Origin: a virus
Taxonomy: Duplodnaviria > Caudoviricetes
Length of the DNA stretch: 64,000 bases
Strand: one strand, 5' to 3'
IMG/VR virus record: IMGVR_UViG_3300042997_002652
Location: 32,001-96,000 of that record
A model generated the notes under the pieces. It was not told where the DNA came from, did no database searches, and worked only from the letters and a program-made list of their open reading frames with translations. Made by a program: the position numbers and the translations under genes. This document shows, one piece after another, positions 7,701-25,000 of this stretch (the stretch's first letter is position 1; every line of letters starts with the position of its first letter).

Positions 7701-8144
7701 TTAACTCACCTCTGTCCTTCCATCACCGATATCTTTAGTTTGAATTACTCGCATTTGTTGAGCGCGAGTGTCTGGATCTGCTTGTTGCTGTTCATACATT
7801 TCTAGTACTACGTTTCTGCATACTTGTGTAAACCAACGATCTACGATATCTGCATCAGTATCGTCAGGTTTCATTTTGTACCCAGCTTTAATTAAGTTTA
7901 ACACAAACTTATCGTTCCAGTCAAGATCAAATGAACCATTATTAATATCATTTGGATCAACATCAACTTTCAAAATATTGATATATGGGTCACCTTTTGC
8001 GGTTGCTTGTTCTTTTGCGCTTAGTGTGGGTTCAACTGGTTTAGGTTTTTTAGCTCTAGGCTTTGGTTCTTTAACAGGTTTTTCTACTGGCTGCTCTGGT
8101 TGTGCTTCAGCTTTCTTAAATAGATTTTTCAGTTTATCAAACAT
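7701..8144 (-). CDS. Conserved phage hypothetical protein
   Basis: Start moved to MFDKLK (GGAG SD); Pro/Lys-rich N-terminus; FDLDWNDKFV and DIVDRWF motifs. Confidence 0.75.
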   Translation of the reverse strand: MFDKLKNLFKKAEAQPEQPVEKPVKEPKPRAKKPKPVEPTLSAKEQATAKGDPYINILKVDVDPNDINNGSFDLDWNDKFVLNLIKAGYKMKPDDTDADIVDRWFTQVCRNVVLEMYEQQQADPDTRAQQMRVIQTKDIGDGRTEVS

Positions 8145-9156
8145 TAGTTTTCTCCTTAATGTATGTATCGTATAATGCAAAGCTAGCAAGGTTTTTTGCT
8201 TTGCTTTCGCACAGCATGTCGGCCCACTCATTGTGAGTTATAGCCCAATCATTAACCGCTGTGTTCCAATAGTAATCAGAATGAGCGCGAAGGTGTTGTT
8301 TTTTGTGCCCAGTTTCTAATAGTGTAGTAAGATTGGGTAGTGTGTTTTTACAATGATTAACTAAGTAATCTTCGCGTGAAACACTATAATGAATAACAGG
8401 TCTAACACCGCGCCAAGAATCAATCACTCGCTTGATACGATCATCTGTAGCTTCAATATACTCACCTGTTTTCACCCAATGATGATGAATATCTAGGACT
8501 AGTGCAACATGATCTGCAAGCTCAAGTGAAGCATCCAATCCCCATGTCATTTCGTCATTTTCAATAGTGATCATGTTTCTTGCTTCAGGAGACAAACGAG
8601 GCAAAACGTCAATAATACCTTGAGGACCTTTTCTGCCAGAGATATGCACATTGATCTTAAAGTCTTGAAACTGTTTGCCATAGCCCATCATGCGAGCCAT
8701 ATCAACATGATATTCAAATTCTCTAATAGAGTTTTCTACTATAGAGGGAGTTTCCGAAGCTAGCACTGTAAACTGACCGGGGTGAAATGAAAGTCTAACG
8801 TTATGCTTTCTAGCAGTTTCACCAATGGGCGCAAATAGTTGCTCCATGCGCTTTACTACGTCAGGCAGTTTGTAAAAGTATTGCCAATCTTCGTGAGTGT
8901 AGGCTGTCATCATGTCGCTCGTCAACCTCACAATTCTAAGCTCAAGTGGAAGTTTAGCAACACGCATAACAAGATTATGTGTGTGTTTGATGTTAGTTTC
9001 CATTACTTCCCACATTTTGCGTTCAGCTACATTCTTGCCCACTTTTTTCAAGTAAGTAAGAGTAGTGCCGCCAGTGTTAAGACCTTCAACACTTTCAACA
9101 AGACCTTTCTTGTTGATTGCTACAAATTTACACGCAAATCCAATCTTTTTGATCAT
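8137..9156 (-). CDS. uvsE: UV-damage endonuclease (UvsE/UvdE TIM barrel)
   Basis: IGFACK, RLSFHPGQFTVL, INVHISG, ITIENDE, VLDIHHHW, HYS, AHSD and CESKAKNLA motifs; start moved to MIKKIGF. Confidence 0.92.
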   Translation of the reverse strand: MIKKIGFACKFVAINKKGLVESVEGLNTGGTTLTYLKKVGKNVAERKMWEVMETNIKHTHNLVMRVAKLPLELRIVRLTSDMMTAYTHEDWQYFYKLPDVVKRMEQLFAPIGETARKHNVRLSFHPGQFTVLASETPSIVENSIREFEYHVDMARMMGYGKQFQDFKINVHISGRKGPQGIIDVLPRLSPEARNMITIENDEMTWGLDASLELADHVALVLDIHHHWVKTGEYIEATDDRIKRVIDSWRGVRPVIHYSVSREDYLVNHCKNTLPNLTTLLETGHKKQHLRAHSDYYWNTAVNDWAITHNEWADMLCESKAKNLASFALYDTYIKEKTNV

Positions 9157-9188
9157 TGTAGATACCCAGTATAATGATAGACTAGTTA

Positions 9189-9216
9189 AGTATACACGGT
9201 TATTTAGAAATGTCAA
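9189..9216 (-). promoter_or_regulatory. Sigma70-type promoter for uvsE
   Basis: TTGACA-N16-TATACT with a TG extension. Confidence 0.7.
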
Positions 9217-9259: not shown

Positions 9260-10528
9260 TCAATGCTTTAAGAGTAGGGTACTTAGTACGCCCTGAGAGT
9301 TTGCTGTTAGATCGGGTTCACCGGGAGCAATGATAACATTCCATATATTGTTTATAGAATCTTTACCCTTTTTCTCCCATTCATCATAGCTAAGAATAGT
9401 ATTTTTATTTAAACCGTATTTAATTGCTAGTCTGTCTTTAAGAGTATCTAATGTTCCTGGCTGAAGTTGCCATTGTCCACTTGGTCCCTTTTCCAACTTT
9501 CCGTCTTTCTTGAGCAACAAATCTTTGAATAATTCGTCGGGAACAATTCTAGAGTTCTTTGTTTTTTCTAAGTTAGGATCAGTTGCTTTAACTTGTCTTT
9601 CTTGTTGTTTACTAGCACCCTCACTCCAGTTTATCATAAAGTTGTCTGGTTTCTTTCCTAATGCTGCTCCAGCGATTTTAGTGTAAGCATAGAAATTAAC
9701 ATCAGGTATAGATTGAGCCATTTTAAATGCCAAATCCATATACTGCGGACTAAAGAAATCCCCAGCATCGTGCCATCTAATAGTAACACGATATCCGTTT
9801 TTATCTCCTAAACGTTTTTCTTTTTCAATTTCGGTTTTCAATTGATTAAAGAACCCGTCTGGATCATTTAACAAATATGTTAATATTCTACCATCGCTTA
9901 TCCATGCGTTCTTGAACTGAATCTTTCCGCCTTTCATAGCAAAACAATCAACTTTACATGATCCAGCACCCGGACATGTATTTACGATAATCAATTTATT
10001 ATCTGATTCATCAACTGCGATACCAGTTAACGCAGCAAAACCAACGTTAAAGAACTGTTCTAGTTCTCCGCTGGAGTGTTTCATTTTTTCGTTTTCTTTT
10101 AACAGTTCTTTTGGTCTTTGAGACAACACATCAATAACTTTCTTTTCGTCATATCTGTTACCCGCCGCATCGTAATATTCTATTACGCTAGATCGGTGCA
10201 TGTATGGTAATTTATATCTATCTGTCTTTTCTTTACCCGATACATACTTTTCAATACCTTTCTTATCTACTTTAGGATTACCTTGTTTATCTAAGTCAGG
10301 TGTTCCTATGATTCTTTTCATATAATCTTGAAATTCTTGATCACCAAATTCTCTAGAAGGAGCCGAGAGTTTCGTAGCTTCGTCTACAACTTCATCTTCC
10401 GAAATCTCGTCATCACTTAGTTCAGCTTGTACGAATTCTTCTGGTGACATTATCTCTACGCCAGCAGTTGACCCCGGAAGCGACTCTGCCGCTTCATTAA
10501 TAATATCTAAAAGTTTTCTAAAATCCAT
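9260..10528 (-). CDS. GP88-family Fe-S / radical-SAM-like protein with acidic N-terminal extension
   Basis: TCPGAGSCKVDCFA (Cx5Cx3C), IRWHDAGDF and FYAYTK motifs; late promoter GATAAATA at 10552-10559. Confidence 0.6.
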   Translation of the reverse strand: MDFRKLLDIINEAAESLPGSTAGVEIMSPEEFVQAELSDDEISEDEVVDEATKLSAPSREFGDQEFQDYMKRIIGTPDLDKQGNPKVDKKGIEKYVSGKEKTDRYKLPYMHRSSVIEYYDAAGNRYDEKKVIDVLSQRPKELLKENEKMKHSSGELEQFFNVGFAALTGIAVDESDNKLIIVNTCPGAGSCKVDCFAMKGGKIQFKNAWISDGRILTYLLNDPDGFFNQLKTEIEKEKRLGDKNGYRVTIRWHDAGDFFSPQYMDLAFKMAQSIPDVNFYAYTKIAGAALGKKPDNFMINWSEGASKQQERQVKATDPNLEKTKNSRIVPDELFKDLLLKKDGKLEKGPSGQWQLQPGTLDTLKDRLAIKYGLNKNTILSYDEWEKKGKDSINNIWNVIIAPGEPDLTANSQGVLSTLLLKH

Positions 10529-10550: not shown

Positions 10551-11393
10551 CTATTTATCTAAAGTAAGCAGTTGTTCAACAGTATACAACTCTACCATAT
10601 ACGGTGAAACATTTTCTAATACACTTGATGGTAAGTCCCCTTTCCTCCTAGAACCTTCTTTAACTTTAAAGTCACAGTTGTTTACTTGTTTAAATATATC
10701 AACCATTTCTCTTACAGTGTGACCGATCCCGTGCCCTAAGCTTTCTACTTTGTTACTAGGAGTTTCAATAGCTAACTTTAATGCAGTACATATTTCCATA
10801 ACATGTACATAATCTCTAACCGCTGTACCGTCCCATGATTCTCTATAGTCAGTACCAAAGATAGTAAACTCATCAGTGTCTCGTGCTTTCATTAAATTAT
10901 ACATTAAGCCGTCAGGATTAGTTGGCTTGATACCATAATGACTACCGATCACATTATAAAATCTAAAAATAGTATAATCCATTGGCTTGTGTACAGTACA
11001 CATTTCTCTTACACAATCTTCTGCTGCCCGTTTACTAATACCATATGCTGATTCACACCCAACCGCTGCTCCAGTAGATGCAAATATAAAGTTGTTAGTT
11101 GGTATTTTATTCATTACATTTGTTGTACCATTTAGGTTAGTAAAATAGTACAGCATAGGCATTTGTTCACTTTCCCCTACATTAACTAATGCTGCTAAGT
11201 GAATAACAGCGTCATATGGTTCAGTTTGATCTGGGATAGTAAACAGTCTAGTAATGTCTACTTGATAAAACTTTTTGATAGGTACTTGAGGTTCTTTAAC
11301 ATCTAAACCATGTATTTCATATTCGTTTTCTAATAGTTTGCAAAGATGTGAACCAATATACCCTGAGCAACCTGTAATTAAAATCTTTTTCAT
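10551..11393 (-). CDS. NAD-dependent epimerase/dehydratase (GalE-like extended SDR)
   Basis: ITGCSGYIGSH Rossmann motif, VIHLAA, FASTG, YGISK (YxxxK), FRFYNVIG, VRDYVHV. Confidence 0.9.
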   Translation of the reverse strand: MKKILITGCSGYIGSHLCKLLENEYEIHGLDVKEPQVPIKKFYQVDITRLFTIPDQTEPYDAVIHLAALVNVGESEQMPMLYYFTNLNGTTNVMNKIPTNNFIFASTGAAVGCESAYGISKRAAEDCVREMCTVHKPMDYTIFRFYNVIGSHYGIKPTNPDGLMYNLMKARDTDEFTIFGTDYRESWDGTAVRDYVHVMEICTALKLAIETPSNKVESLGHGIGHTVREMVDIFKQVNNCDFKVKEGSRRKGDLPSSVLENVSPYMVELYTVEQLLTLDK

Positions 11394-12745
11394 TATAATC
11401 CTTCAAATAATGCATTTGGTGTATCATCTGTTGGTACAAAAGTTAAATCTTTTGTTAACCATGTATCTTGATCTGTATATATTACTCTAAACTTGTGTTT
11501 ATTAGATAATACGCTTTCAAAGTCCTCTCTTGCTATTTGTGTTCTGTTGAGGTCTTTTATATAGTCTTTGTAATTTACGGTTTCGTAAGTGTTTATCTTA
11601 GCTGTATTAGTTTTTGCTTGTTTAGCTTTAAAGTCAACTAACAACTGTTCCCAGCCTTCTGCAACTTGATCATCTAACGATCTGACGTAATCCAAAGCTT
11701 CAGGAAGTTGATTAATACCAGCTAACGCCAAGATATATTCATGTGCTTGTGATAAACTTGTTTTATGATAGAATTTGCTATCAAAGTTATCTGACCAATC
11801 TTGAGTATCTAGAACTACGCAAGGCATGTGTCCTAAACATTCTAAAAAGGCAAACGGATAGTTTTCTCTTAAACTAGGCATGAAAAATATTTTAGAACTT
11901 TTAATAAAGTCTACTTTTTCACTACCCACTATACCTGCTTTTATTTGATAGTCTGTTATACCTGCTTCTTTAAAAGCTTTTTCAAACTTTTTAGCACCGT
12001 TGGAATTAGTCATTACTTTGCAGGGTAACTTACACTCTTTCATCACTTTAATATATGCTTCAGGGTTTTTACCTTCTTCCCATCTGCCGATAAACAACAC
12101 ACCCGATTTAGTTCCTGCATAGGGTTCTAGTAATTGTCTTTCGCTCATTGGCATTTTTAACAGCTTACAATTAGTAGAACCATGTTTGGTTAATTCGTTG
12201 ATATTTTTTTGACTTTGTGTTCCTATAATAATATCACTAAACTCCATGTGCTTGTTATAGAAGTTGTGATAACTTGATAGAAAAACATCACTACCTTGTG
12301 TTTCTCTAAAGATCATACTGTGTAAATGAGTATAGAACACGATTGGTATGTAGCTGTTTAGAGTCATTGCATAAGCAGCAGACATTGCTTCCTGTGTGTT
12401 ACATATTAGCATATCATAAATGTTTGTTTCAAACCCGATAATAATAGATTTGCGAAAGTTTACTATCTTTTCAAAGTTAATAGTATCACTAAATGCAAAT
12501 GTATTAGTATGGTCAGTGTATCTAAGGTTGTCTGAAGGATAAACAATGTTTGCACCTAATGACTGCAACAGTTCACTAAACTCGTTAGTAGGTTTTTTAT
12601 CTACGATGATATCAACTTTCCATTGTAGTCTTGCACACATTTCAGTAAAACCTTTAGCAAACTGGCCTATCCCGCCGTGAGGGATAAGATGCTGGTCGCT
12701 TATTAAAAATCCAATTCTTTTGTTATATGTTTTTATGTTCCCCAC
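11393..12745 (-). CDS. GT-B (GT4-like) glycosyltransferase with extra C-terminal domain
   Basis: N-terminal PHGGIGQF, LFIGRWEEGKN and the EX7E motif ENYPFAFLE; about 70 extra aa after the GT fold. Confidence 0.8.
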   Translation of the reverse strand: MGNIKTYNKRIGFLISDQHLIPHGGIGQFAKGFTEMCARLQWKVDIIVDKKPTNEFSELLQSLGANIVYPSDNLRYTDHTNTFAFSDTINFEKIVNFRKSIIIGFETNIYDMLICNTQEAMSAAYAMTLNSYIPIVFYTHLHSMIFRETQGSDVFLSSYHNFYNKHMEFSDIIIGTQSQKNINELTKHGSTNCKLLKMPMSERQLLEPYAGTKSGVLFIGRWEEGKNPEAYIKVMKECKLPCKVMTNSNGAKKFEKAFKEAGITDYQIKAGIVGSEKVDFIKSSKIFFMPSLRENYPFAFLECLGHMPCVVLDTQDWSDNFDSKFYHKTSLSQAHEYILALAGINQLPEALDYVRSLDDQVAEGWEQLLVDFKAKQAKTNTAKINTYETVNYKDYIKDLNRTQIAREDFESVLSNKHKFRVIYTDQDTWLTKDLTFVPTDDTPNALFEGL

Positions 12746-13578
12746 CTATTCCCAAAAAGCGGGATATGAAGTCTATCGCTGTATCTTAATCCATGTTTCA
12801 TAGCTAGTTCAGCTACCCGTTGATTGTTTAACCTATATACGCTTTCTACGCCACCGATTGGCATCAAGTAAACAGGACCTTTGAACCCTTCTTTTCTATA
12901 CAATTCAGTTACTTCTATAGCTTCCATAGCATCTTCATCGGTTGCTATAACAAACTTTAAGTAAGTGTATCCTGCATTTTGATAATCTACAACGATTTCG
13001 GGAATAATAGCATCTTCACGTTTTTCACCTGAACAACTTAATTTAGGACTTACTGAAAATGTGATTTCTCTATCCCAATGCTGAGCCGCCCACTCATTCC
13101 TTAAGTAATGTCTAAACTCTTTAAACAATGGTTGTGTGCCATTAGTTTCAAACGTAATCTCTTTTAATGATTGCATCTTTGGATGATTTAATAAGTCAGG
13201 ATAAGATCGTTGCCACCCTAACAAAGGTTCACCACCAGTAATAACCAAATGTTCGTCACGCCATTCTTTAAATGGCAACAGATTAACTATTGCTTCAGCA
13301 ATCGCATCAGTAGTAAGTTTAGGGGATAAGTGTTTAAAGTTTACATCCCAGCTTGCGTAACTGTCACAACCAGTCGTAACTAATGGCAAGTCATTATAGT
13401 TTTTATAGCTTTTAGGATGAATTAGATTTCTTTCGTTACTGATTTCACCTTTAGGCATACCAAATCCTGAACAAGTGAAGTTGCAACCAAATGTTCGTAA
13501 GAATACACTTGGTACACCAGTATATCTGCCTTCTCCTTGTACTGAATAAAATAGTTCGCTGATCTTTATATTAGACAT
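12733..13578 (-). CDS. queE: 7-carboxy-7-deazaguanine synthase (radical SAM)
   Basis: ISELFYSVQGEG, FLRTFGCNFTC...CDS, LVITGGEPLL, FETNGT, SVSPKL, RLHIPLFGN. Confidence 0.92.
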   Translation of the reverse strand: MSNIKISELFYSVQGEGRYTGVPSVFLRTFGCNFTCSGFGMPKGEISNERNLIHPKSYKNYNDLPLVTTGCDSYASWDVNFKHLSPKLTTDAIAEAIVNLLPFKEWRDEHLVITGGEPLLGWQRSYPDLLNHPKMQSLKEITFETNGTQPLFKEFRHYLRNEWAAQHWDREITFSVSPKLSCSGEKREDAIIPEIVVDYQNAGYTYLKFVIATDEDAMEAIEVTELYRKEGFKGPVYLMPIGGVESVYRLNNQRVAELAMKHGLRYSDRLHIPLFGNRWGT

Positions 13579-13774
13579 TTGTATCTCGTTTAGTTTTCAG
13601 GGTCGGGTTCTCTACCGGTCTGCATGATAACTGACTATCACACAAACCGTATCTAGTAGTTTCTGTTATTATCTCATAACCGTTGTAAATTACAACCTTT
13701 TCGGTAGTTTCTGTTTCTAAAAACTTTTTAAAAGAACCAAGTGTGTCCCATTTTAACTTTTTGGGTACATACAT
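13571..13774 (-). CDS. Small hypothetical protein
   Basis: Fills the gap between the PRTase and queE; likely start MYVPKK coupled to the PRTase stop. Confidence 0.5.
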   Translation of the reverse strand: MYVPKKLKWDTLGSFKKFLETETTEKVVIYNGYEIITETTRYGLCDSQLSCRPVENPTLKTKRDTNV

Positions 13775-14322
13775 TACTTCCACCAGTTTTCCCAAGAAAA
13801 CTCTATCCAAGAATCTTCTTCAGCTTTGTTAATAGACAAAGAAGTATAGGCTATATCTTTAAAGTCGCTGGCTTCATTGTTTATCAATGTAGCAAACTTT
13901 ACATTATGATTCCATACTGTATCCCAGGCATACCTTTCATTTGGCATACATGACGATTCCCAGTCTTTCTTAATCCATTTGATAGTTTCACCCGTATCAT
14001 TGATATCATCTACAATCAAGATATTCTTTCTACGTGATACGTCCCAACGTGACTTTTCAGTTTGTCTTATTTCAGTTGACAAGTAGCCAAAAGCATGTTC
14101 AGGCATCCAAGCATTACACTCTTGTTGCGCATGGTCTCTTAAACTAACTCGCAATGTTTCCATTGGCACATTATAATACTGACTGATTAAAAGTGCAGGA
14201 AGTAAACCACCTCGCGTAATACCCACAACGTAGTCAGGTTTATATCCAGACAAAGTTATTTGTCTGATGATATCCATAGTCATTTTTTGTACATCTGAGT
14301 TTGATAACGTTACTGTGTTCAT
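13774..14322 (-). CDS. Type I phosphoribosyltransferase (purine PRTase/Gpt-like)
   Basis: VVGITRGGLLPA and the PRPP-binding loop ILIVDDINDTGET; ends WIEFSWENWW like Gpt; start moved to MNTVTLS (AAGGA SD). Confidence 0.85.
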   Translation of the reverse strand: MNTVTLSNSDVQKMTMDIIRQITLSGYKPDYVVGITRGGLLPALLISQYYNVPMETLRVSLRDHAQQECNAWMPEHAFGYLSTEIRQTEKSRWDVSRRKNILIVDDINDTGETIKWIKKDWESSCMPNERYAWDTVWNHNVKFATLINNEASDFKDIAYTSLSINKAEEDSWIEFSWENWWK

Positions 14323-14323
14323 A

Positions 14324-14788
14324 TTATCCTTCATAAATTGCTGAGTTAGCATCATGTTCAAATACTTCTACGCTTTTAACAGATACTGTTTTGTTTAATA
14401 ATGTGCCTGCTTTTTGGCTTTCGTCTAAAATTTGCGTCATTTTCTTAAAAGCCATTTCAGCAAATCGTTCACATCCAACTGCTGGAACAATTCGCAAATC
14501 AGCTACATGTGTGGGCAAATTCTTTAACTGTTCAAGTTCGGGATCATCTTCAGCTACTAACAAAGTATGATCAAACATGTGTTCTAGCCACTGTTTAAAT
14601 TCTTTAAGCCCGCCAAAATCCATGACCCAGTTTCTTTCATCCAAGCTTTCACATTCAAAGATGATTTTAACACCTATTGAATAGCCATGAAGTAGCGAAC
14701 AATGACTATGAGTAGAACGCCACTGTCTAAAGCAACAGCTTAGTCCCCTGTCATTACCATATGTTTTTGTACTATAAAACTTACCCAT
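14324..14788 (-). CDS. queD: 6-carboxy-5,6,7,8-tetrahydropterin synthase
   Basis: CSLLHGYS (CxxxHG), WVMDFGGLK, FDHTLLV, GCERFAE, VEVFEH. Confidence 0.88.
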   Translation of the reverse strand: MGKFYSTKTYGNDRGLSCCFRQWRSTHSHCSLLHGYSIGVKIIFECESLDERNWVMDFGGLKEFKQWLEHMFDHTLLVAEDDPELEQLKNLPTHVADLRIVPAVGCERFAEMAFKKMTQILDESQKAGTLLNKTVSVKSVEVFEHDANSAIYEG

Positions 14789-15245
14789 TCTTTCTCTCCG
14801 ATTCTGTTACTCGTTTACGTAAACTACTAGAGCTAAAACTATGATTTCTTTTATTATAAATGATTTCTATGTCAATTGCAAGACAATATTCTTTACCAGT
14901 GAAATCTTTGTCCATGTACTCTGCTCCCAATATACGAACATCTACTGGAAGTATTTTTAGTAAATCAAGCAAGTCTTGTTCAGTTTGGTATACCACAACT
15001 TCATCTACAAACCTACATGAACTTAATTGTATCTGTCGTTCAACGATACTTTGTACTGGTTTGTTTTTGGTGTCAGGTCTATCTATAGTTGGATCAGTTT
15101 GTAATCCAGCGATCAGGTAGTCGCAGTGATTTTTAGCTTCAGCTAACATTGCTATGTGTCCGGCATGAAGAAGGTCAAAAGCAGAAAATACTATGCCTAT
15201 CTTTTTTCCTTCTTCTTTTAATTGTCTAATTACATTAAAGATCAT
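14781..15245 (-). CDS. TagD/RfaE-like cytidylyltransferase (HxGH family)
   Basis: FSAFDLLHAGH, LIAGLQTD, PVQSIVER, SFSSSSLR. Confidence 0.88.
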   Translation of the reverse strand: MIFNVIRQLKEEGKKIGIVFSAFDLLHAGHIAMLAEAKNHCDYLIAGLQTDPTIDRPDTKNKPVQSIVERQIQLSSCRFVDEVVVYQTEQDLLDLLKILPVDVRILGAEYMDKDFTGKEYCLAIDIEIIYNKRNHSFSSSSLRKRVTESERKNG

Positions 15246-15928
15246 TTCTGAGGTTTTCCCATTCGTGCAATGCTTAGAAACTCTGCTCTTGCTGCTGGAT
15301 CAGTTTTGAAACCTCCACCTAATTTACAAGTTACTGTGCTTGACCCAGTGTCTTCAACACCGCGGCTCTTAACACAATAATGCTGTGCATCTATCATAAC
15401 AGCAACATGTTCAGTTTCTAAAATATAGGAAAGTGCATGGAATACTTGTTCAGTCAGTCTTTCTTGGATCTGAGGACGCTTACTGAAATACTCAACAATC
15501 CGATTGATCTTTGAAAGACCCAGAACCTTTTCCTGGGGTACGTATGCTACAGTAGCAAGACCATCAATGATTACAAAGTGATGTTCACAATTAGATTGTA
15601 CGTTTACGTTGCGTTCAACGACCATTTCGTCATAGCCCATTTTGTTTGCAACAGTAGTACATTTTGGGAATGCATCATAGTCTAGACCCCAAAAGATTTC
15701 ATTAACATACATCTTAGCAACACGCTTGGGCGTTTCTATAAGACTGTCATCAGATAAATTTAACCCGAGGGCTTGCATAATATCGGTAAACTTAGCTTCA
15801 ATGATTTCAATTTTGTCTGTGCGACTTAGATTGTTTTCAACTTGAGGAGTTTCAACTCCCATTTTGACTAGATATTTGTGTATCTTTTGACCCAACTCTG
15901 GATCACATTTTACTTTATTAAATGACAT
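15242..15928 (-). CDS. folE: GTP cyclohydrolase I
   Basis: ETPKRVAKMY, SNCEHHF, GLSKINRIVEYFSKRPQIQERLT, HYCVKSRGV. Confidence 0.96.
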   Translation of the reverse strand: MSFNKVKCDPELGQKIHKYLVKMGVETPQVENNLSRTDKIEIIEAKFTDIMQALGLNLSDDSLIETPKRVAKMYVNEIFWGLDYDAFPKCTTVANKMGYDEMVVERNVNVQSNCEHHFVIIDGLATVAYVPQEKVLGLSKINRIVEYFSKRPQIQERLTEQVFHALSYILETEHVAVMIDAQHYCVKSRGVEDTGSSTVTCKLGGGFKTDPAARAEFLSIARMGKPQK

Positions 15929-15946
15929 TTATATTCTCCTTTTGAA

Positions 15947-16003
15947 AGCATCTAACGTTAATGCTCAACGACCTTTCGGTATTTGCTACCTTTGTGTAGC
16001 AAA
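15947..16003 (-). promoter_or_regulatory. Three-hairpin leader upstream of folE
   Basis: UUUGCUAC/GUAGCAAA (8 bp), ACC-GAAA-GGU and AGCAU/AUGCU stems just 5' of the AAGGAG SD. Confidence 0.35.
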
Positions 16004-16008
16004 GATAT

Positions 16009-17112
16009 TTATCTCTTGTCAAGAAACACCGAATTAAATTGTTTGTTCACTCTAACAAATGTTGTACACTTTGACAAGTCTTTTAGGCTCGTTGCACCAA
16101 CATAAGTACAAGTACTGCGAACCCCACCTAAGATATCTTGTACTGTTTTAGCTACTGGACCTTTGTATGGAACCTTAACAGTCCTACCTTCTGAACTACG
16201 ATATTCTGCTACCCCGCCATGATGTTTAGTCATAGCAGTATCGGAACTCATACCATAAAACTGAACAAACTGCTTCTTTTCTTCAAGCTTTCCCAAACGA
16301 TTACCGGTTTCAGGGTCAAAGATTATTTGATTGGTTTCGTATACTTCTTCAATTATTTCTCCGCCACCTTCTGTGTGACCAGCAAGCATACCGCCTAGCA
16401 TTACAAAATCTGCGCCACCGCCGAATGCTTTTGCTATATCACCAGGACAAGTACAACCACCATCAGCAATGATATGACCGCCCAAACCGTGTGCTGCGTC
16501 CGCGCATTCAATAATGGCTGATAGTTGAGGATACCCAACACCTGTTTGAATACGAGTAGTGCAAACACTACCAGGACCAATACCCACTTTAACAATGTCT
16601 GCTCCACGTAAAATTAACTCCTGTGTCATATCTGCGGTAACTACATTACCTGCAATAATAGTTTTAGTTGGACATAATTTTCTAACTTTAGCAACAAACT
16701 CACCAAAGTGTTCTGAATATCCGTTAGCTATATCAATACAAATAAACTGTATCATGTCAGGATACTTATAAAGAATACTTTGTAACTTTGTAAAGTCACG
16801 ATCACTAGTACCAGTACTGATAGCAGTATTGTAAGAAAAGAATTTTGAAAAATTATCTTCCAAATCTTCTAAAGAATAACTTTTAACTAAGCAAGTAATC
16901 ATATTATATCCAGCAAGCGCAACTGCTATGTCAAAAGTACCAACACCATCCATGTTTGCAGCTAGGATAGGCACACCAGTCCAATTTGCGTTACTGTGCT
17001 TGAACTGATAAGTTCTTTCCAAACTTACTTCTTTTCTGCTAGACAGTGTTGATCTTTTTGGACGGATTAGAACATCACTGAAATCTAGTTTTACTTCATT
17101 TTCAATACGCAT
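16009..17112 (-). CDS. guaC: GMP reductase
   Basis: [70 protein letters not shown]. Confidence 0.95.
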
Positions 17113-17113
17113 A

Positions 17114-18313
17114 TTAGTACTTGTTTTCCTTTGTGTGTTTTCTATAATCTGTAGACATACGTAACCATTGCTCGCCTTTGCCTTCTATGATGTCACAAAT
17201 TCTATCAACAGTTTTGTCTGTCCAATCACTGATTTTGCCCATGTTTTTATGAGGTTTATCCAACAAAGATTCTAGTTTGCTGATCATATCTTCTATAGAC
17301 CAGGGCACATACATTCTTTCATGATCGTTAGCAAATACTTCAGGGAAAGAACGATACGCAGGGAATAAGACATTACATCCTAGTGCGTCAGCTTCACTTA
17401 CAGTATTACTAGTCCAATCTTGTAGTGCAGTATTAACTAAAACTCTAGAGTCTGTGAGTAAACGATAGTACTCATTTTTAGACAAGTTTTCATAAATCGT
17501 AAGCAACTTTTCTTCTTGCATAGCTCTAGCCATATCAACAAATTCTTGTTTGTTACTACGCAACGTTGAGCCTGTAAATATAGAAAATTCTATTTCACCA
17601 AACATTTCTTTGGGATATTTAGCATACCATTCTTTGATTAACTGAAGATAAAAGTCTGGATTCTTTTCTTGATCCCAACGTGAAGAAAAGCATACGCGCA
17701 TTTTGCGTTTATTGAATAAGATTAGGTTATGATCTACACGTTCTCTAACTTCTTGCTTATTAAATGCTAAACCAGATACGTTGTAAATGTTTGCAGTCCA
17801 TCCTGCTACTTTCATGTGTGCTACCATTTCTTCGTTTGATGCTAATACAGCACCTTTAGAAATAGAAACAATAGTGTTGACCATTTGTTCGTATTCGCTC
17901 ATCCACTTTTGCATACCCCAAACATGAACAAAGTCATCTGGATCAATAGTTTGTGCTAAACAGCGAACAAAGATACGAGGTCTTAGATTTTCTGGCACTT
18001 GAGTGATAATATATCCCAAGCTTTCAAAACCGGGCTGAAACATATCTTCAAAGTAAATTACGTCTTCATTTGTTACTTCACCCTGCTGCATCATACGAAC
18101 CAAGTTCATCATTTGACTCATAGCAAAGTAACTACGTCCGTGTGCATCTAAAACTTGACCTACTACAATTTGGTTAGAGTCATCAAGAGTTTCGCCCGGA
18201 ACATAAACTACTTTCATCCTTCTATGATCAAATACTCGCTTGTTCCATTCAGTTAATTGAAGTGTGTACCTTGCTTCGTAACTTTCAAGCCCCATGTAAA
18301 ACAGTTTTTGCAT
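17114..18313 (-). CDS. GT-B fold glycosyltransferase
   Basis: [29 protein letters not shown] (D/E-x7-E-like), PAYRSFPE. Confidence 0.7.
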
Positions 18314-18331: not shown

Positions 18332-18361
18332 AAAGAATGGGCTTGAAAGCCCATTCTTTTT
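18332..18361. terminator. Intrinsic terminator hairpin
   Basis: AAAGAATGGGC-TTGAAA-GCCCATTCTTT. Confidence 0.75.
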
Positions 18362-18366
18362 AGATT

Positions 18367-18594
18367 TTATCGTGATCCCGAAAGTCTTTCAAGTTGCTGA
18401 GCCCACTGATCTTTTACTTCCTTGCCAGTTAGTAGCTTGCCGTATTGACGCCAGACATAGCTACGATTGCTGTACAAGTCAGCTTCATCAAACCGGTACC
18501 CATACTCTCTACAGAAATTTCTATATTTATCCAAATCATCAAAAACTTTCTGAGTACGCGGATTAGGTTTAATATTGTTAGTTGAACGTGACAT
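18367..18594 (-). CDS. Conserved small phage protein
   Basis: 75 aa; VFDDLDKYRNFCREYGYRFDEADLY. Confidence 0.65.
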   Translation of the reverse strand: MSRSTNNIKPNPRTQKVFDDLDKYRNFCREYGYRFDEADLYSNRSYVWRQYGKLLTGKEVKDQWAQQLERLSGSR

Positions 18595-18664: not shown

Positions 18665-19108
18665 TCATCGTGTTAAGCAATTATATTCTATTTCACAACC
18701 GTTTTCATTATCTTCGGCAACAGAGATTACTATTTTTCTCCCAGAATAACGAGTTGCAATTACTTCGTACAAATCATCAGCAATCATTTCGCAACTTTTA
18801 TGATTAAGTTCCAAAACACTATTCTTATACTGATTTTCTAACCAGCGTTTGAATTGGATAAATTCAATATCTCGGTCATTATGGAAAACTTGAATAGCTA
18901 CCTTAAAGTAGAAAATATGTCTATGAGGCCAACCTAAAAAGCTAACATCATACTCATCTTTAGTTTTTAGATTAGGATCAGTGCTAGCATCAGGATAACA
19001 ATGAATACCTTCCTTTTGAAAAGTTACCCAAATCATACGAGTAGCCTTATTTTTGATTTGATTTCTTTGTTCTATCATAGCTATTTCTCTTTGATTAACT
19101 GCACTCAT
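18665..19108 (-). CDS. dpdL: QueD-like T-fold protein, DpdL-like (candidate CDG decarboxylase)
   Basis: LGWPHRHIF fits LxxxHRHxF, which I recall as the DpdL signature; also DIEFIQFK, SCEMIA and VAEDNENG T-fold elements; lies in a folE-queD-queE cluster. Confidence 0.7.
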   Translation of the reverse strand: MSAVNQREIAMIEQRNQIKNKATRMIWVTFQKEGIHCYPDASTDPNLKTKDEYDVSFLGWPHRHIFYFKVAIQVFHNDRDIEFIQFKRWLENQYKNSVLELNHKSCEMIADDLYEVIATRYSGRKIVISVAEDNENGCEIEYNCLTR

Positions 19109-19314
19109 CTATCATCACCGTAATCCAATCGTTCATGAGTTTCTTCCCATTCTTCTTTTATAAGTCTAGACAGTTCCAAAGAGTACTCATTTTTTTGCTT
19201 TTGCATTTCAACAAGTTTTTGTTTATTGTAATTCTCGTCTTTCATAGCTGCTTGTATCAGAGTAGTAAGACGGTTAATATTTTCTCGCACAAACTGAATT
19301 CTACTTTTATTCAT
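19105..19314 (-). CDS. Small coiled-coil hypothetical protein
   Basis: 69 aa, ATGA-coupled to the dpdL-like gene. Confidence 0.55.
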   Translation of the reverse strand: MNKSRIQFVRENINRLTTLIQAAMKDENYNKQKLVEMQKQKNEYSLELSRLIKEEWEETHERLDYGDDR

Positions 19315-19327
19315 ATCTTTTCTCTTG

Positions 19328-20884
19328 TTAACTAATACTAAATAAATCAGGATTACCCCACTGCGGTAATACTTTCTTTTCTAACTTATCTATTACCATT
19401 TTATCATGAAGGTCATCACCCTCAAAATTATCCGTAAGTGTAGTCATGTTGTTTACTGCTTTCTTACCAGAAAAGCCCTGACTTCCTGACTGCATTTGCA
19501 TCCAAAACTTGTTATACTGTTCAATAGTATCTAAACTTTCTTGTCTAGTTTTTTTACTAAAGATTTCATCTACGATGTCATTAAAGTGTTTGGGTTCAAA
19601 CTTGTTCATAATCATTTTTGGCATAATGCCCTGCTCGTACCTACGATTAGCTTCTTGAACAGCATAGATGTGTTGATACACATTATGGGCTTGAACTAGT
19701 GTATAACTCAAAGTATCCCAACTTGTTTTAGTTTCTTTACCATGCTGTCCCAAAAAGCCATGACCCCTATAACACAAGTCCTTAATAAGCATTTTATCAG
19801 TTACAGGAGAATCAGTAAATATTTTATGGATGCCGTCAGCTAAAACTGCGTCACTAAACTTTCTATTATCTGTATCATAGTTTTTATTTTCAGCAGTTTT
19901 TTCCATTGAATAGGACCATTTCTTATCATGTTCAATAGAATTATTAAAGTAAACCAAACCTTTTGCTGCTGCGAAAAACGGGCTAGCACAGTCAAATGTA
20001 ATTTGCAAGTTTGGATTGTGATACTTTCTAACTGCACGTTGAATGTCAGTAAACAGAACCGCATACTCTAAGATACTAGTACCCAAACAGTGAATAAGAT
20101 CGTGTTTACCTGTTTCTAGTAATCCATCGTAAATCATGTTTACTATACGTTTGAGCATCAAGTGAATGTCAATTTTATTCTGACCACCAAACGCCCAACC
20201 GTTAAAGTGATTAGTTGGATATACTTTTGGATCACAGTACTTTTTCATTTCAGCATACCATTCATCACTTTGAGTATGAGTTAATCCTTGAAGTACGTTT
20301 AATAACTTACATTCGCCTGTTCTGTTATTGATAAAATACTCATTGTTGATATGAGTAGCTGCAACAGCTTGTTCTATTGTAGAAATACCGTGCTTGTCAA
20401 GTAAGTGTTTGTTTCTAAGAGTTTGAGTAGGAACGTCAAGACACATACCATAGTCCATATAAGTATCCATCCATTTTAGTACTAGTTGACGCTGCTTCAT
20501 AGCTTTAGGACAGTTAGGATCTTTCCAATCAGCTGGCCATTGCCCCTTCATAATCTGAAATCCACCTGAGTCGCCTAACATGAAAGTACCCTTTTCACGC
20601 TTTCTGATAATTGACTCACTTGGATCATCTTTAGTAATGTCTAGATTAGCGTGACCTGCAGAATACAAGCCCCATTTGTACTTGTACAAACCCTGAGTAG
20701 AGTTCAAGAAGTTAAGTGGTTCTACGTCACCATTAAACCCTTGAGGAATTCTAGCAGCATCAAAGTACTGCTCACCTTCTCGTTGTTTGCCTAATCCTGC
20801 GATAAAGAATGAAGACACTGCCGGTAAGAACAGTGCCCATTCTGGATTGTGTGCGTTAGTAAGATTATGCTGGATCTGATCCAT
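19328..20884 (-). CDS. dpdA: TGT-fold guanine transglycosylase, DpdA-like
   Basis: TGT motifs in the correct order: LGDSGGFQ, CLDVP, VLQG, GWAFGG, IHCLG, ITFDCASP. No CxCxxC zinc site of tRNA TGTs; lies next to the Que genes. Confidence 0.7.
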   Translation of the reverse strand: MDQIQHNLTNAHNPEWALFLPAVSSFFIAGLGKQREGEQYFDAARIPQGFNGDVEPLNFLNSTQGLYKYKWGLYSAGHANLDITKDDPSESIIRKREKGTFMLGDSGGFQIMKGQWPADWKDPNCPKAMKQRQLVLKWMDTYMDYGMCLDVPTQTLRNKHLLDKHGISTIEQAVAATHINNEYFINNRTGECKLLNVLQGLTHTQSDEWYAEMKKYCDPKVYPTNHFNGWAFGGQNKIDIHLMLKRIVNMIYDGLLETGKHDLIHCLGTSILEYAVLFTDIQRAVRKYHNPNLQITFDCASPFFAAAKGLVYFNNSIEHDKKWSYSMEKTAENKNYDTDNRKFSDAVLADGIHKIFTDSPVTDKMLIKDLCYRGHGFLGQHGKETKTSWDTLSYTLVQAHNVYQHIYAVQEANRRYEQGIMPKMIMNKFEPKHFNDIVDEIFSKKTRQESLDTIEQYNKFWMQMQSGSQGFSGKKAVNNMTTLTDNFEGDDLHDKMVIDKLEKKVLPQWGNPDLFSIS

Positions 20885-22032: not shown

Positions 22033-24735
22033 TCAACCAAAAGAAAACAAACTATCAAATGTAGTATTTGTGTCTGTGTTACTTTTCAAGTCCCAGTTTA
22101 GTACACCTAATAGGTTTTCAATCTTTTTATCTACTAGTGTAGTTTCCATTAATGAGTCATCAAACGGTAATTGTTTGAACCAATCTGGAAGTCTAAGCTC
22201 ATCTGTAGGATAAGCAATGGAAGTGAATCCTAACGGATTGGTTTTAAGCTTACACACAACAACTTTCATACCATCTAAAATAGTCATAGAATAATTGTCG
22301 CTATGTGCCTTTTTAAGAAAGTTCCAATTGATAGCTGCACGAACATGCCCCGGCATAGTAGCCTTACCTTTTTTACTTCTAGCTTCTAGTTCGCCGTAAA
22401 AAGTAAGCTTGTTTACTGACTTAGGAGAACCCTTAGTCCAACTAGGCTGTTCGGATAGTTCTCGCTTAAAATCTTTGATACGTTCTATAATATCTTCTTT
22501 GGACTTATTGCTTAGAACCATAGTAAGAACGTCTAGTAAAAACTTTTGAATATATTTAGGCGTATCTGATCTTTTTAGTTCAAGACCCATAGCTTTAATA
22601 TCACCCGTTTTACCATTTACGTCTTTACGCTTGCCTTCTTTGTCATAGATATTTACCGCATAACGCTTTTTCTTGATAAACAAGCCCACGTCACCTATGA
22701 TTTCTCTGCCACCTTTAATGATAGCACCGTTCTTTCTTGGACAATGACATGCACGTTCCATGAACCCGGGAAAGCTATCGTTAACTTGATCAGCAATATT
22801 ATCATATAATTGGACAACTAGTTCTTTGTTCCATTCCATCTTACCTGCGTTAACTTCTTGCTCAATAATAGGCCAAGCTGAAAAATAACCTGAGTCGGTA
22901 TCAGAGTATATCATAGATTCGCCTTCATGATTGTAAGCACCTGTTATAATCTCATTGATCTGAGAATTCATGTGCTTAACAATTTGTCTACCAGTTAAAG
23001 TAACTGACTGACCCAATCGTTTGTCATAGAACCTACAGTGTTCATTTAAGAGTGCACCATAAGCAGAGTTAAGCAAAATCTTTCTTACCAACTGTCGCTT
23101 GTCATAATACTCTTTATCTGTTTCAGTAGTAGCTTCTTTTAGTTTTTTCTGCAAGTCTTTACGTTCAGCATACCAACGAGTAAGTAGACCGGGAATAACA
23201 CCTTCTTGATCACTTCTAAATATAGTACCATTAGCTGATAACATATACGGACTGTGTGAATCAAAAATCATTTTCCATATTTCAGCAGCAGACATTTCTT
23301 GTGATCTACCATCTTCAAAGTCAACAATAAGCATTGTGCCGCGTTCTTGATTCATTACTGAAGTATATTCTAGTGAACCAAACAATCCTTCCCAAAGCAA
23401 TGAACTCATGTCAAGTTCATCATCTTCGTCATAGTTTCGCTTTTCTTTAGCTAGTTCCATTGCTCTATCGTGTAAGAACTTTTCAGTATGTGTTTGTCTA
23501 ATTTGCCCTACAATTGTTTCTGGGGCCATGTTCAAAGCACGAATTGTTGAAGGATACAGTGAGTTAATATCTATAGCTCCCACCCAGTAATGCAATCCTT
23601 TCTTTGGTTGGGCAACATAAGCACCAGCAGCAGCCATTTCGCCTGAATGACCTCTTTGCTTATCTGGCACGATAAGACCTCTAGCATGTGCTTCATTATA
23701 GATAGCCATTTCAATCATAGCTACTGAACCCATTACTGTTGGTAACAATACTGTATTTTCGTGTGCTAGTTGATTAGCCAACTCTAAGAATTTTAGCTTG
23801 TTGTGAATCTTTACTACAAGCATAGTGTCTTGGCGGTTATATCTAATGAATTCTTTGAAGTCACGATTGTATAGTTGATCTAGTGTGCCTTCATATGGAG
23901 TTTTTGTTTCACCAACTTCCATTTCCCCGATAGCATCTAACGAGTAACTGTGTCTGGATTCATAGTTGTACTTTTTATACAACTGAAGATAGTCCATATG
24001 AATTCTACCTACTAAGTCATATGTTTGTTCTTCTTTACCAAATCGTTCGTAAGTTCTTGGTTTAGGTAATTGCCCCATTAAACAGAACTTTCTAGTATCA
24101 TCTTTACTCATGATCTTAGTTACTCTGTTTACTATATATGGAATATCAAATCCTTCTGAGTTCCATCCTGTTAACACATCAGCATCTTCAATTATTTGAA
24201 AGAAAGTTTCAAACATTTCTATTTCACTACGAAACAAAAAAGTGTTTGGAAATTCTGCTACTAGCTCTTGTGCTGTTTCGTCTGTTATGTGTTTAGGTGG
24301 AATAGCCAAACATATAAGTTGATCTAACCAATCCAAGTACAATGCAATTGCTGTCACTGGACTAAAAGGATCACTAGTAGGCGCGTATCCGCGTTCTGGG
24401 GAAAAATCAACCTCAATGTCAAAAAACGCTGTGTGAAGTTTTGGAGCTTCTACACCTAAATAGTTGTCAGATAAACATCTAAAAACAGTGTTAACATCGC
24501 TTTCAAATAACTTCTTACCCGAGTGTATACGCTTTTCTTTTTCAAATTCGCTTTTCTTTCTAGTAGAAAACCTACTTAAAGAGTCACGATAGATAGAACG
24601 ATACTTGCCTTTAGAGTCGGGATAATAAAATACATAGTTAGCAGGGAACTCCTGATAGCTTCTAGTGCCATCAGAAGTTCTTTCTATCACATGTATGCGA
24701 TCATTTTTTGCATCATTGATTGCATCAACATACAT
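22033..24735 (-). CDS. Family B DNA polymerase (gp43-like)
   Basis: Exonuclease motifs FFDIEV, GWNSEGFD and YNRQD; polymerase motifs DINSLYPS, KILLNSAYG, YSDTDS and KKRYA; start moved to MYVDAI. Confidence 0.96.
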   Translation of the reverse strand: MYVDAINDAKNDRIHVIERTSDGTRSYQEFPANYVFYYPDSKGKYRSIYRDSLSRFSTRKKSEFEKEKRIHSGKKLFESDVNTVFRCLSDNYLGVEAPKLHTAFFDIEVDFSPERGYAPTSDPFSPVTAIALYLDWLDQLICLAIPPKHITDETAQELVAEFPNTFLFRSEIEMFETFFQIIEDADVLTGWNSEGFDIPYIVNRVTKIMSKDDTRKFCLMGQLPKPRTYERFGKEEQTYDLVGRIHMDYLQLYKKYNYESRHSYSLDAIGEMEVGETKTPYEGTLDQLYNRDFKEFIRYNRQDTMLVVKIHNKLKFLELANQLAHENTVLLPTVMGSVAMIEMAIYNEAHARGLIVPDKQRGHSGEMAAAGAYVAQPKKGLHYWVGAIDINSLYPSTIRALNMAPETIVGQIRQTHTEKFLHDRAMELAKEKRNYDEDDELDMSSLLWEGLFGSLEYTSVMNQERGTMLIVDFEDGRSQEMSAAEIWKMIFDSHSPYMLSANGTIFRSDQEGVIPGLLTRWYAERKDLQKKLKEATTETDKEYYDKRQLVRKILLNSAYGALLNEHCRFYDKRLGQSVTLTGRQIVKHMNSQINEIITGAYNHEGESMIYSDTDSGYFSAWPIIEQEVNAGKMEWNKELVVQLYDNIADQVNDSFPGFMERACHCPRKNGAIIKGGREIIGDVGLFIKKKRYAVNIYDKEGKRKDVNGKTGDIKAMGLELKRSDTPKYIQKFLLDVLTMVLSNKSKEDIIERIKDFKRELSEQPSWTKGSPKSVNKLTFYGELEARSKKGKATMPGHVRAAINWNFLKKAHSDNYSMTILDGMKVVVCKLKTNPLGFTSIAYPTDELRLPDWFKQLPFDDSLMETTLVDKKIENLLGVLNWDLKSNTDTNTTFDSLFSFG

Positions 24736-24736
24736 A

Positions 24737-25000
24737 TTACTGGACCCTGCCAACAGTCTCCAGAATCGTGTTTAAATCTTCATGATCTTGATTAGTTTGT
24801 GTAAGTGATGACTTGTATGCAGTCTTTACTGCCCGTTTTAGTACGGATGGCTTGATATCTAGCTCTTCTGCAATAGCTTTTATCGTATCCGATAATCCGC
24901 CGTTAAGCGTTTCTATCTCATTTAATACTGAAAGACCCTCATTTATAATCTGGGTCAATTTAGTTTTTTCGTCTTGATTAAATACTCTACCGTTTGACAT
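24737..25000 (-). CDS. T4 DsbA-like small dsDNA-binding protein
   Basis: 87 aa helical; LSDTIKAIAEELDIKPSVLKRAVKTAYK. Confidence 0.6.
   Translation of the reverse strand: MSNGRVFNQDEKTKLTQIINEGLSVLNEIETLNGGLSDTIKAIAEELDIKPSVLKRAVKTAYKSSLTQTNQDHEDLNTILETVGRVQ

Follow-up and report, generated by a model that had tools for sequence, protein, structure and literature searches.

Why should a phage keep two glycosyltransferases and genes for sugar-nucleotide metabolism among genes that make a modified guanine? The question is raised by a gene cluster at positions 10551-18313 of the 64,000-nucleotide stretch analysed here (the window), which is bases 32001-96000 of the 267-kb IMG/VR record IMGVR_UViG_3300042997_002652 (completeness estimate 76%, about 36% GC). 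The record belongs to an uncultured, lake-type jumbo phage that carries the known gene set for replacing guanine by 7-deazaguanine in DNA. The cluster lies on the minus strand and consists of nine recognisable enzyme genes and one 79-amino acid (aa) open reading frame (ORF), densely packed and abutting or overlapping one another; in order of transcription these are a glycosyltransferase called GT2 here, GuaC, FolE, a nucleotidyltransferase, a QueD-like protein, a phosphoribosyltransferase (PRTase), the 79-aa ORF, QueE, a second glycosyltransferase (GT1) and a sugar-nucleotide epimerase. An original prediction had read this region as a candidate glycosylated deazaguanine system. The ORF list and family searches find every gene that it named, on the minus strand and overlapping or abutting as described; its inventory lacked the PRTase, the 79-aa ORF and two genes upstream of GT2, homologues of DpdL and DpdA, which extend the functional unit to position 20884. 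We read the cluster as one half, the one concerned with sugar tailoring, of a DpdL-type 7-deazaguanine DNA-modification module; the module follows the DNA polymerase gene of the phage.

The base-making genes are the first step toward an answer. FolE, QueD and QueE together make 7-carboxy-7-deazaguanine (CDG), and all three have counterparts in the window (the genes described below are on its minus strand): FolE, GTP cyclohydrolase I, at 15242-15928 (Pfam GTP_cyclohydroI, 3.6e-61), a QueD-like 6-carboxytetrahydropterin synthase at 14324-14788 (Pfam PTPS, 4e-19) and a QueE-like radical-SAM CDG synthase at 12733-13578 (phrog_2076, 6.9e-56). The QueD-like protein and QueE (QueE models, 2e-15) both fall under the NCBIfam equivalog cut-offs, and the former has the motif CSLLHGY (CxxxHGY) where QueD has CxxxHGH, so that one zinc-ligand histidine is replaced. 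QueD identity among the relatives is low, 39-66%. The gene at 18665-19108 encodes a 147-aa QueD-paralogous T-fold protein whose sequence LGWPHRHIF fits LxxxHRHxF, the signature that replaces CxxxHGH in the QueD paralogue DpdL, the proposed CDG decarboxylase (PMC10516641). This DpdL homologue is 50% identical to a protein of Acidovorax phage ACP17 and 32.5% identical (8e-7) to one of Cellulophaga phage phiST (tblastn).

Further upstream, at 19328-20884, a 518-aa DpdA-like protein, the putative DNA guanine transglycosylase, carries a DSGGFQ motif in which D105, S106, G107, G108 and Q110 are invariant in both alignments (A1 and A2). Its AlphaFold2 (AF2) model (pLDDT 82) has the tRNA-guanine transglycosylase (TGT) fold, and the best 50 listed Foldseek matches in the PDB are all TGTs (E from 2.7e-7, probability 1.0, template modelling (TM) score by target about 0.5). 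Sequence profiles gave no match, either to Pfam (E up to 1) or from the alignment to PDB sequences, nor did tblastn against the DpdA3 proteins of phiST and Campylobacter at 1e-3, and the canonical TGT Pfam family has no match in the genome; the protein may, by these sequence comparisons, belong to a subfamily other than DpdA3. No QueC is encoded within the window. Because a DpdL homologue and a TGT-fold DpdA-like gene lie upstream, we take the cluster to be a DpdL-type 7-deazaguanine DNA system of the phiST type, QueC-less within the window. The phiST system, which makes 2'-deoxy-7-deazaguanosine (dDG), consists of FolE, QueD, QueE, DpdL and DpdA3 (Cui, Hutinet et al., NAR 2023, PMC10516641). 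Both clusters have FolE, a QueD protein, QueE and a DpdL with LxxxHRHxF, both are without QueC, both have a highly divergent TGT-fold DpdA that Pfam misses, and both lie beside replication genes; in the window, the whole cluster is directly downstream of a family-B DNA polymerase gene (22033-24753; Pfam DNA_pol_B, 1.6e-40, and DNA_pol_B_exo1, 2.8e-22). They differ in that the phiST genome has no GT2-family gene and its cluster has no sugar-nucleotide enzymes, PRTase or GuaC.

It is GT2 (17114-18313, 399 aa), a GT4-like glycosyltransferase of the GT-B type (Pfam Glycos_transf_1, 7.3e-6), that joins the sugar genes to this system. Within the phage's own, very abundant family, counted on GT2-bearing contigs with enough upstream sequence, DpdA is found within 4.5 kb upstream in 75 of 76 and DpdL is upstream in all 76. 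The gene order GT2-(GuaC)-FolE-(nucleotidyltransferase)-QueD-(PRTase)-QueE-GT1-epimerase recurs in more than 100 IMG/VR contigs. Among cultured phages, a family hidden Markov model (HMM) finds exactly one GT2-family gene each in PA5oct, ACP17, Xanthomonas phage X1, BCSR5 and Phosso, and BUCT-ZZ01, a sixth lineage, likewise has one, in every case within the deazaguanine cluster. The homologue overlaps or abuts dpdA in PA5oct, ACP17, X1 and BCSR5, and abuts dpdL in Phosso; in ACP17 (L177, KY979132.2, 4728-7411) the GT2-family gene (342 aa, HMM 3.6e-44) lies between dpdA and dpdL.

The association also extends to distant members of the family. Ten GT2 representatives (28-39% identity) were chosen from an exhaustive search blind to gene context; a DpdL gene with LxxxHRHxF is adjacent or within about 1.5 kb in all ten, and every contig of sufficient length also has FolE, PTPS or radical-SAM genes close by. 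GT2-bearing phages differ in their replicative polymerase (PolB here, PolA in locus L172), and GT2 pairs with two DpdA subtypes, one with DSGGFQ (about 520-550 aa) and one with DSGGLQ (about 420-440 aa). Whole-genome HMM searches of five DpdL phages (phiST, Ahp1, Bakedbeans, RHph_I1_18 and D479) found no GT2-family gene, and five positive controls matched. GT2 belongs to a GT4-like family that, among everything sampled, is found next to DpdL only. GT2 always occurs with DpdL and DpdL sometimes occurs without GT2, which is the pattern expected of an enzyme that acts on the product of DpdL, and we consider it very probable that GT2 is functionally tied to the DpdL/DpdA pathway. The original prediction had taken both transferases and the sugar-nucleotide enzymes as one system with the que genes; conservation with the que and dpd genes holds for GT2, and GT1, the epimerase and the nucleotidyltransferase vary among relatives, which makes their link the weaker one.

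The fold of GT2 is taken from an ESM Atlas model (AF2 folding covered the DpdA-like protein and GT1), which is of the GT-B type with TM scores of 0.69-0.77 to GT4 clusters. The donor-site residues R212, K217, D299 and E307 are invariant over homologues of 28-55% identity; R212 and K217 form the basic pair, and D299-x7-E307 is a variant of the E-x7-E donor-site motif. The family is very large, its close homologues forming at least 7932 clusters at 90% identity. Other ideas about GT2 were rejected. That GT1 and GT2 are recent paralogues finds no support, their local match spanning 25 residues only. An Atlas neighbour, the tRNA-queuosine mannosyltransferase QTMAN (GTDC1), is not supported as an identity for GT2 by the family model, since QTMAN_N (PF12038) was not detected anywhere in the genome with E values up to 1. 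The GT4-conflict family (PF20706), also an Atlas lead, likewise lacked a genome match up to that E value and matched the X1 homologue at 0.053.

What might such an enzyme do? FolE, the QueD-like protein and QueE would produce CDG, which DpdL would convert to 7-deazaguanine, and DpdA would then exchange this base for guanine in phage DNA (after PMC10516641). GT2 would glycosylate the DpdL-made 7-deazaguanine from a nucleoside diphosphate (NDP)-sugar, most likely after its insertion into DNA, and attachment could be at the electron-rich, nucleophilic pyrrole carbon C7 freed by DpdL, giving a C-glycoside, or at the exocyclic N2 as in huimycin. GT1 would attach a second or alternative sugar, the GalE-like epimerase and the nucleotidyltransferase (HxGH) would furnish donors, and the PRTase and GuaC could recycle the guanine released by base exchange and reduce the supply of G nucleotides; alternatively, they might serve a parallel route at the nucleotide level. 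We give about an even chance to a product that is a sugar-bearing deazaguanine in virion DNA, the acceptor being inferred. Slightly more tentative is the fuller proposal that these phages replace guanine with a glycosylated 7-deazaguanine to which GT2 adds a hexose or N-acetylhexosamine, possibly as a C7 C-glycoside, and which GT1 extends in the phage studied here.

This arrangement has parts in common with other known systems. As with the T4 alpha- and beta-glucosyltransferases, a GT-B enzyme gene lies beside base-modification genes, the proposed logic is base first and sugar second, and a two-enzyme elaboration is possible; the T4 enzymes act on 5-hydroxymethylcytosine, whereas the acceptor proposed here is a purine analogue without a hydroxymethyl group, and the fold neighbours of GT1 are GT4 enzymes, with no T4 glycosyltransferase among the 50 matches listed. 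The resemblance to QTMAN, a language-model neighbour of GT2, is that of a GT-B enzyme acting on a 7-deazaguanine derivative in nucleic acid, but the QTMAN_N domain was not detected in the genome and the QTMAN sugar sits on the queuosine cyclopentenediol, which is absent here. A precedent is HuiG of the huimycin pathway, a GT4-type enzyme that N-glycosylates a 7-deazapurine base with UDP-N-acetylglucosamine (UDP-GlcNAc) (bioRxiv 10.64898/2026.04.15.718813). Like GT2, it is a GT4-like enzyme in a FolE/QueD/QueE cluster with (for GT2, as proposed here) a 7-deazapurine acceptor; it differs in belonging to the secondary metabolism of actinomycetes, where no DpdA is involved and the substrate is a free derivative of preQ0 that carries an O-methyl group, and the likeness is one of description. 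Indirect support comes from PA5oct: its DNA is reported to resist cleavage where the restriction site contains G, and nucleases directed against hypermodified DNA sense it (PMC12191111). An acceptor of the hydroxymethyl-pyrimidine kind was rejected, because the genome has an ordinary ThyA (366 bits) and no ThyX, and there was no sign of a hydroxymethylase.

Several observations weigh against a glycosylated deazaguanine. The acceptor of GT2 is an inference, and the GT2 score for Glycos_transf_1, 26.1 bits, is just short of the 26.4-bit gathering cut-off. 7-Deazaguanine has no hydroxyl group; its glycosylation would have to take place on carbon or nitrogen, which is unusual, or else depend on an oxygenase step that has escaped notice, and the sole 2-oxoglutarate/iron-dependent (2OG-Fe) oxygenase found in the genome sits outside the window, about 165 kb past its end. 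The best structural matches of GT1 are GT4 enzymes that act on small molecules or lipid-linked acceptors (MshA, BshA, PglA, PimA), its listed matches are without a T4 DNA glucosyltransferase, as noted above, and just half to three quarters of relatives have genes for GT1, the epimerase and the nucleotidyltransferase. The exact base is also made uncertain by a divergent QueC-like gene elsewhere in the genome: about 144 kb past the window end (G000:C1:239415-240110; L002:1024-1719) is a 231-aa PP-loop protein that matches QueC with 39.4 bits over the last 65 model positions only and has weak N-terminal Asn_synthase and PP-loop matches. This protein may make the amide or nitrile of CDG or ligate something to it, and the base is perhaps not plain 7-deazaguanine. 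Finally, GT2 is unnecessary for the base itself, because phiST attains complete dDG replacement (PMC10516641) without any glycosyltransferase.

The sugar and purine genes around this core are more variable. Among the GT2-anchored loci, 41 extend for at least 9 kb downstream; of these, 31 have an epimerase, 23 have the nucleotidyltransferase, 22 each have the PRTase and GT1, and 12 have GuaC. DpdA, DpdL, GT2 and FolE/QueD/QueE form a fixed core, and the sugar and purine genes a variable shell. GT1 (11393-12745) is a GT4-type retaining glycosyltransferase of 450 aa, of which the last 70 or so form a conserved C-terminal extension. Like GT2 a weak Pfam match, it passes the Glycos_transf_1 cut-off (27.8 against 26.4 bits), its AF2 model (pLDDT 83) is GT-B with the retaining GT4 enzymes MshA, PglA, BshA, SPS and PimA as best matches, and its E294-x7-E302 and HGGIG loop are invariant in the alignment. 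A GT1 homologue is present in the BUCT-ZZ01 cluster (42.6% by tblastn; HMM 8e-148).

The epimerase gene (10551-11393; Pfam Epimerase, 4.5e-33) directly follows GT1 in 85 of 96 loci. It encodes a short NAD-dependent protein with the GxxGxxG and YxxxK motifs, about 50 aa shorter than GalE, and scores 161 bits against the GalE cut-off of 262; the original prediction of a GalE-like enzyme stands at the level of the Epimerase family and its short-chain dehydrogenase motifs, and the protein appears by sequence to be a GalE-like sugar-nucleotide epimerase that is not assignable as GalE itself. Much the same applies to the gene once called TagD-like (14781-15245; CTP_transf_like, 7e-12; phrog_7878, 2.8e-34), whose HAGH motif is the HxGH of the cytidylyltransferase superfamily: the family assignment holds, while TagD (58.9 bits, cut-off 165) scores below RfaE domain II (81.6 bits, cut-off 181), and both scores are under their cut-offs. 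Its substrate is probably a sugar- or polyol-phosphate. At the corresponding position, the relative L026 (6244-7041) has an adenosine phosphosulfate (APS)-kinase-like P-loop domain fused to an HxGH nucleotidyltransferase, a pairing of phosphorylation with activation that would suit an NDP-sugar or, possibly, a sulfate donor. The clusters of relatives include two epimerase/dehydratases, a HIT protein, an aldolase, a DegT fragment and a kinase-nucleotidyltransferase fusion, and the PA5oct cluster has an epimerase-like gene together with a PRTase. In BCSR5 (L182:9927-10634), a weak match to PIG-L/LmbE-type de-N-acetylases (24.3 bits, below cut-off) is one gene from the GT2 homologue. MshA/MshB and BshA/BshB are pairs of a GT4 enzyme and a deacetylase, and by analogy this match hints at a GlcNAc donor.

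The guaC gene (16009-17112), named in the original prediction, encodes what is by sequence a true GMP reductase: it passes two NCBIfam equivalog cut-offs (559.9 bits against 397 and 536 against 492), and human GMPR structures match it at 6e-137. The purine-type PRTase (13774-14361; Pfam Pribosyltran, 2.5e-12) has a weak similarity to xanthine PRTase (35 bits against a cut-off of 138), and homologues are present in the PA5oct and BUCT-ZZ01 clusters. For this canonical GuaC, taken together with the PRTase, purine salvage or control of the pool is a better reading than a part in the sugar chemistry.

Four other explanations of the cluster have to be weighed. The one that survives best is that GT2 glycosylates the free 7-deazaguanine base or nucleotide. 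The product would then be a precursor for insertion by DpdA, or else a soluble deazapurine glycoside of the huimycin kind that is not in DNA. HuiG, a GT4-type enzyme, does act on a free deazapurine base, the fold neighbours of GT1 act on small molecules, and the PRTase, which recurs in three lineages, could make deazapurine nucleotides; moreover, eukaryotic TGT inserts a base that bears a bulky 7-substituent. Nevertheless, in four of the cultured lineages the GT2 gene adjoins dpdA or runs into it, the clusters are located in replication modules and a secreted metabolite is of no obvious use to a lytic phage, and we consider this route unlikely.

According to a second explanation, the sugar genes are auxiliary, serve the glycosylation of virion proteins or the host surface, and lie among the que genes merely by way of a variable gene island. 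The region between the core genes is indeed hypervariable: relatives' spacers hold a Bax-inhibitor homologue, HIT, aldolase, a DegT fragment, an FAD oxidoreductase, an HhH-GPD protein, further epimerases and homing-type inserts, and GT1, the epimerase and the nucleotidyltransferase occur in some relatives and are missing from others. In phage X1 the GT1-like gene is far from the dpd cluster, beside NAD-salvage genes. This account leaves GT2 unexplained, however, which stays beside DpdL/DpdA in the six cultured lineages and with all ten distant homologues, and whose link holds over different polymerase families and DpdA subtypes; as an explanation of the whole cluster it is improbable.

We attach a similarly low probability to a nucleotide-level route like that of tubercidin and toyocamycin, in which the PRTase would join CDG or 7-deazaguanine to phosphoribosyl pyrophosphate (PRPP), DpdL would decarboxylate and GuaC deaminate the product, and the polymerase would incorporate 7-deazapurine dNTPs, the transferases being irrelevant to the base. 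7-Deaza-dGTP is a good polymerase substrate. The tubercidin cluster (PMC6112128) follows a gene logic like the one seen here: CDG-forming genes, a PRTase, a decarboxylase and a GMP reductase, with no QueC. CDG-forming genes, a PRTase and a GMP reductase are common to the tubercidin (TubE, TubD) and toyocamycin (ToyH, ToyE) pathways and the present cluster. The differences are that a DNA transglycosylase is present here, and conserved; that the decarboxylase candidate is a T-fold protein and not UbiD; that adenylosuccinate synthetase (PurA) is absent from the genome; and that the PRTase and GuaC are optional in relatives, in the proportions given above. GuaC passes the canonical GMP reductase equivalog, and the tie of GT2 to DpdL would go unexplained.

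The weakest alternative, that GT2 assists DpdL or DpdA in a regulatory or non-catalytic role, such as that of a scaffold, and transfers no sugar, draws on translational coupling with dpdA in several lineages and on the failure of heterologous DpdA and DpdL to yield dDG in E. coli, for which the authors suspected missing factors (PMC10516641) and in which one of the two phages tested was ACP17, with its GT2 gene between the two, but it is very improbable given the invariance of the GT4 donor-binding residues down to 28% identity, the recurrence of sugar-nucleotide enzymes in the clusters and the fact that phiST makes dDG without GT2.

Returning to the reading of a sugar-tailored, DpdL-type module, the layout of the cluster agrees with the original statement that no terminator interrupts it from 18313 to 10551: a scan of 10551-18313 found no terminator-like site on the coding strand. 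Two hairpins are present. One, without a T-run, is in the guaC-folE spacer (15982-16003); the other, a strong palindromic hairpin with an 11-bp stem and without a proper T-run, lies just upstream of GT2 (18332-18359, no strand assigned) and may act as a weak terminator or in the processing or stability of RNA. Scans for promoters, for terminators and for the T4 late motif TATAAATA gave no excess over chance. Three small ORFs complete the unit. Between DpdL and the hairpin upstream of GT2 is a basic protein of 75 aa (18367-18594; pI 9.6) that is conserved in 109 loci; a conserved 69-aa ORF between DpdL and DpdA (19105-19314) has 12 related loci by tblastn and no Pfam family above cut-off; and the 79-aa ORF between QueE and the PRTase (13571-13810, from the ORF list) is poorly conserved (3 loci).

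Past the epimerase, a GP88-family protein (9260-10528; PF17338, 4.4e-24) adjoins the cluster; its gene is on the opposite strand in most relatives, and it is therefore probably outside the module. A homologue of the UV-damage endonuclease UvdE (8137-9216; 4.7e-39) is kept just past the cluster in many relatives. Variants of the base-making genes were also seen. In several lineages (L172:6745-7953, L185:454-1410, L168:430-1194 and L180:7212-8363, the last being gp176 of Vibrio phage Bakedbeans) the DpdL domain lies behind a fused N-terminal domain of about 130-280 aa that belongs to no recognised family. The relatives L105 (14994-15443) and L088 (15424-15852) have small HhH-GPD-type DNA-glycosylase-like proteins inside their deazaguanine clusters, and in Phosso (L178:7379-7912) a gene annotated 'glycosylase', without a Pfam match, adjoins dpdL; such proteins might help to flip bases or excise G. 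The gene that follows the dpdA-like gene in Vibrio phage 2.275.O was considered as a glycosyltransferase and rejected, having a weak amidoligase match instead.

What is known is the DpdL-type 7-deazaguanine DNA system; what is added here is a dedicated GT2 glycosyltransferase tied to DpdL. To our knowledge, all sugar hypermodifications of DNA are on pyrimidines (glucosyl- and arabinosyl-hydroxymethylcytosine, and base J on thymine), all DNA 7-deazaguanines carry small C7 groups or none, and no sugar-bearing purine in DNA is known. Full-text literature searches on deazaguanine together with DpdA and a glycosyltransferase, or with DpdL in publications from 2024 onward, turned up no account of the pairing of GT2 with DpdL and DpdA, and 'glycosyl' does not occur in the 2023 paper defining DpdL and DpdA3 (PMC10516641). 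The restriction of this glycosyltransferase family, in the sample, to the company of DpdL therefore leads us to predict a new class of DNA base. The prediction is directly testable, since the pair is found in six cultured phage lineages and dDG-containing DNA can be obtained by PCR with 7-deaza-dGTP. The GT2 of ACP17 is a candidate for the 'missing' factor in the E. coli experiment with the DpdA and DpdL of that phage, and may explain why no dDG was obtained. If the prediction is true, this would be the first known sugar-bearing purine in DNA, carried by very abundant freshwater jumbo phages as well as by the cultured phages PA5oct and ACP17. Given the very large size of the GT2 family, the modification would be common in lakes, and it would matter for restriction, CRISPR and other defences, among them the END nucleases that sense hypermodified DNA.

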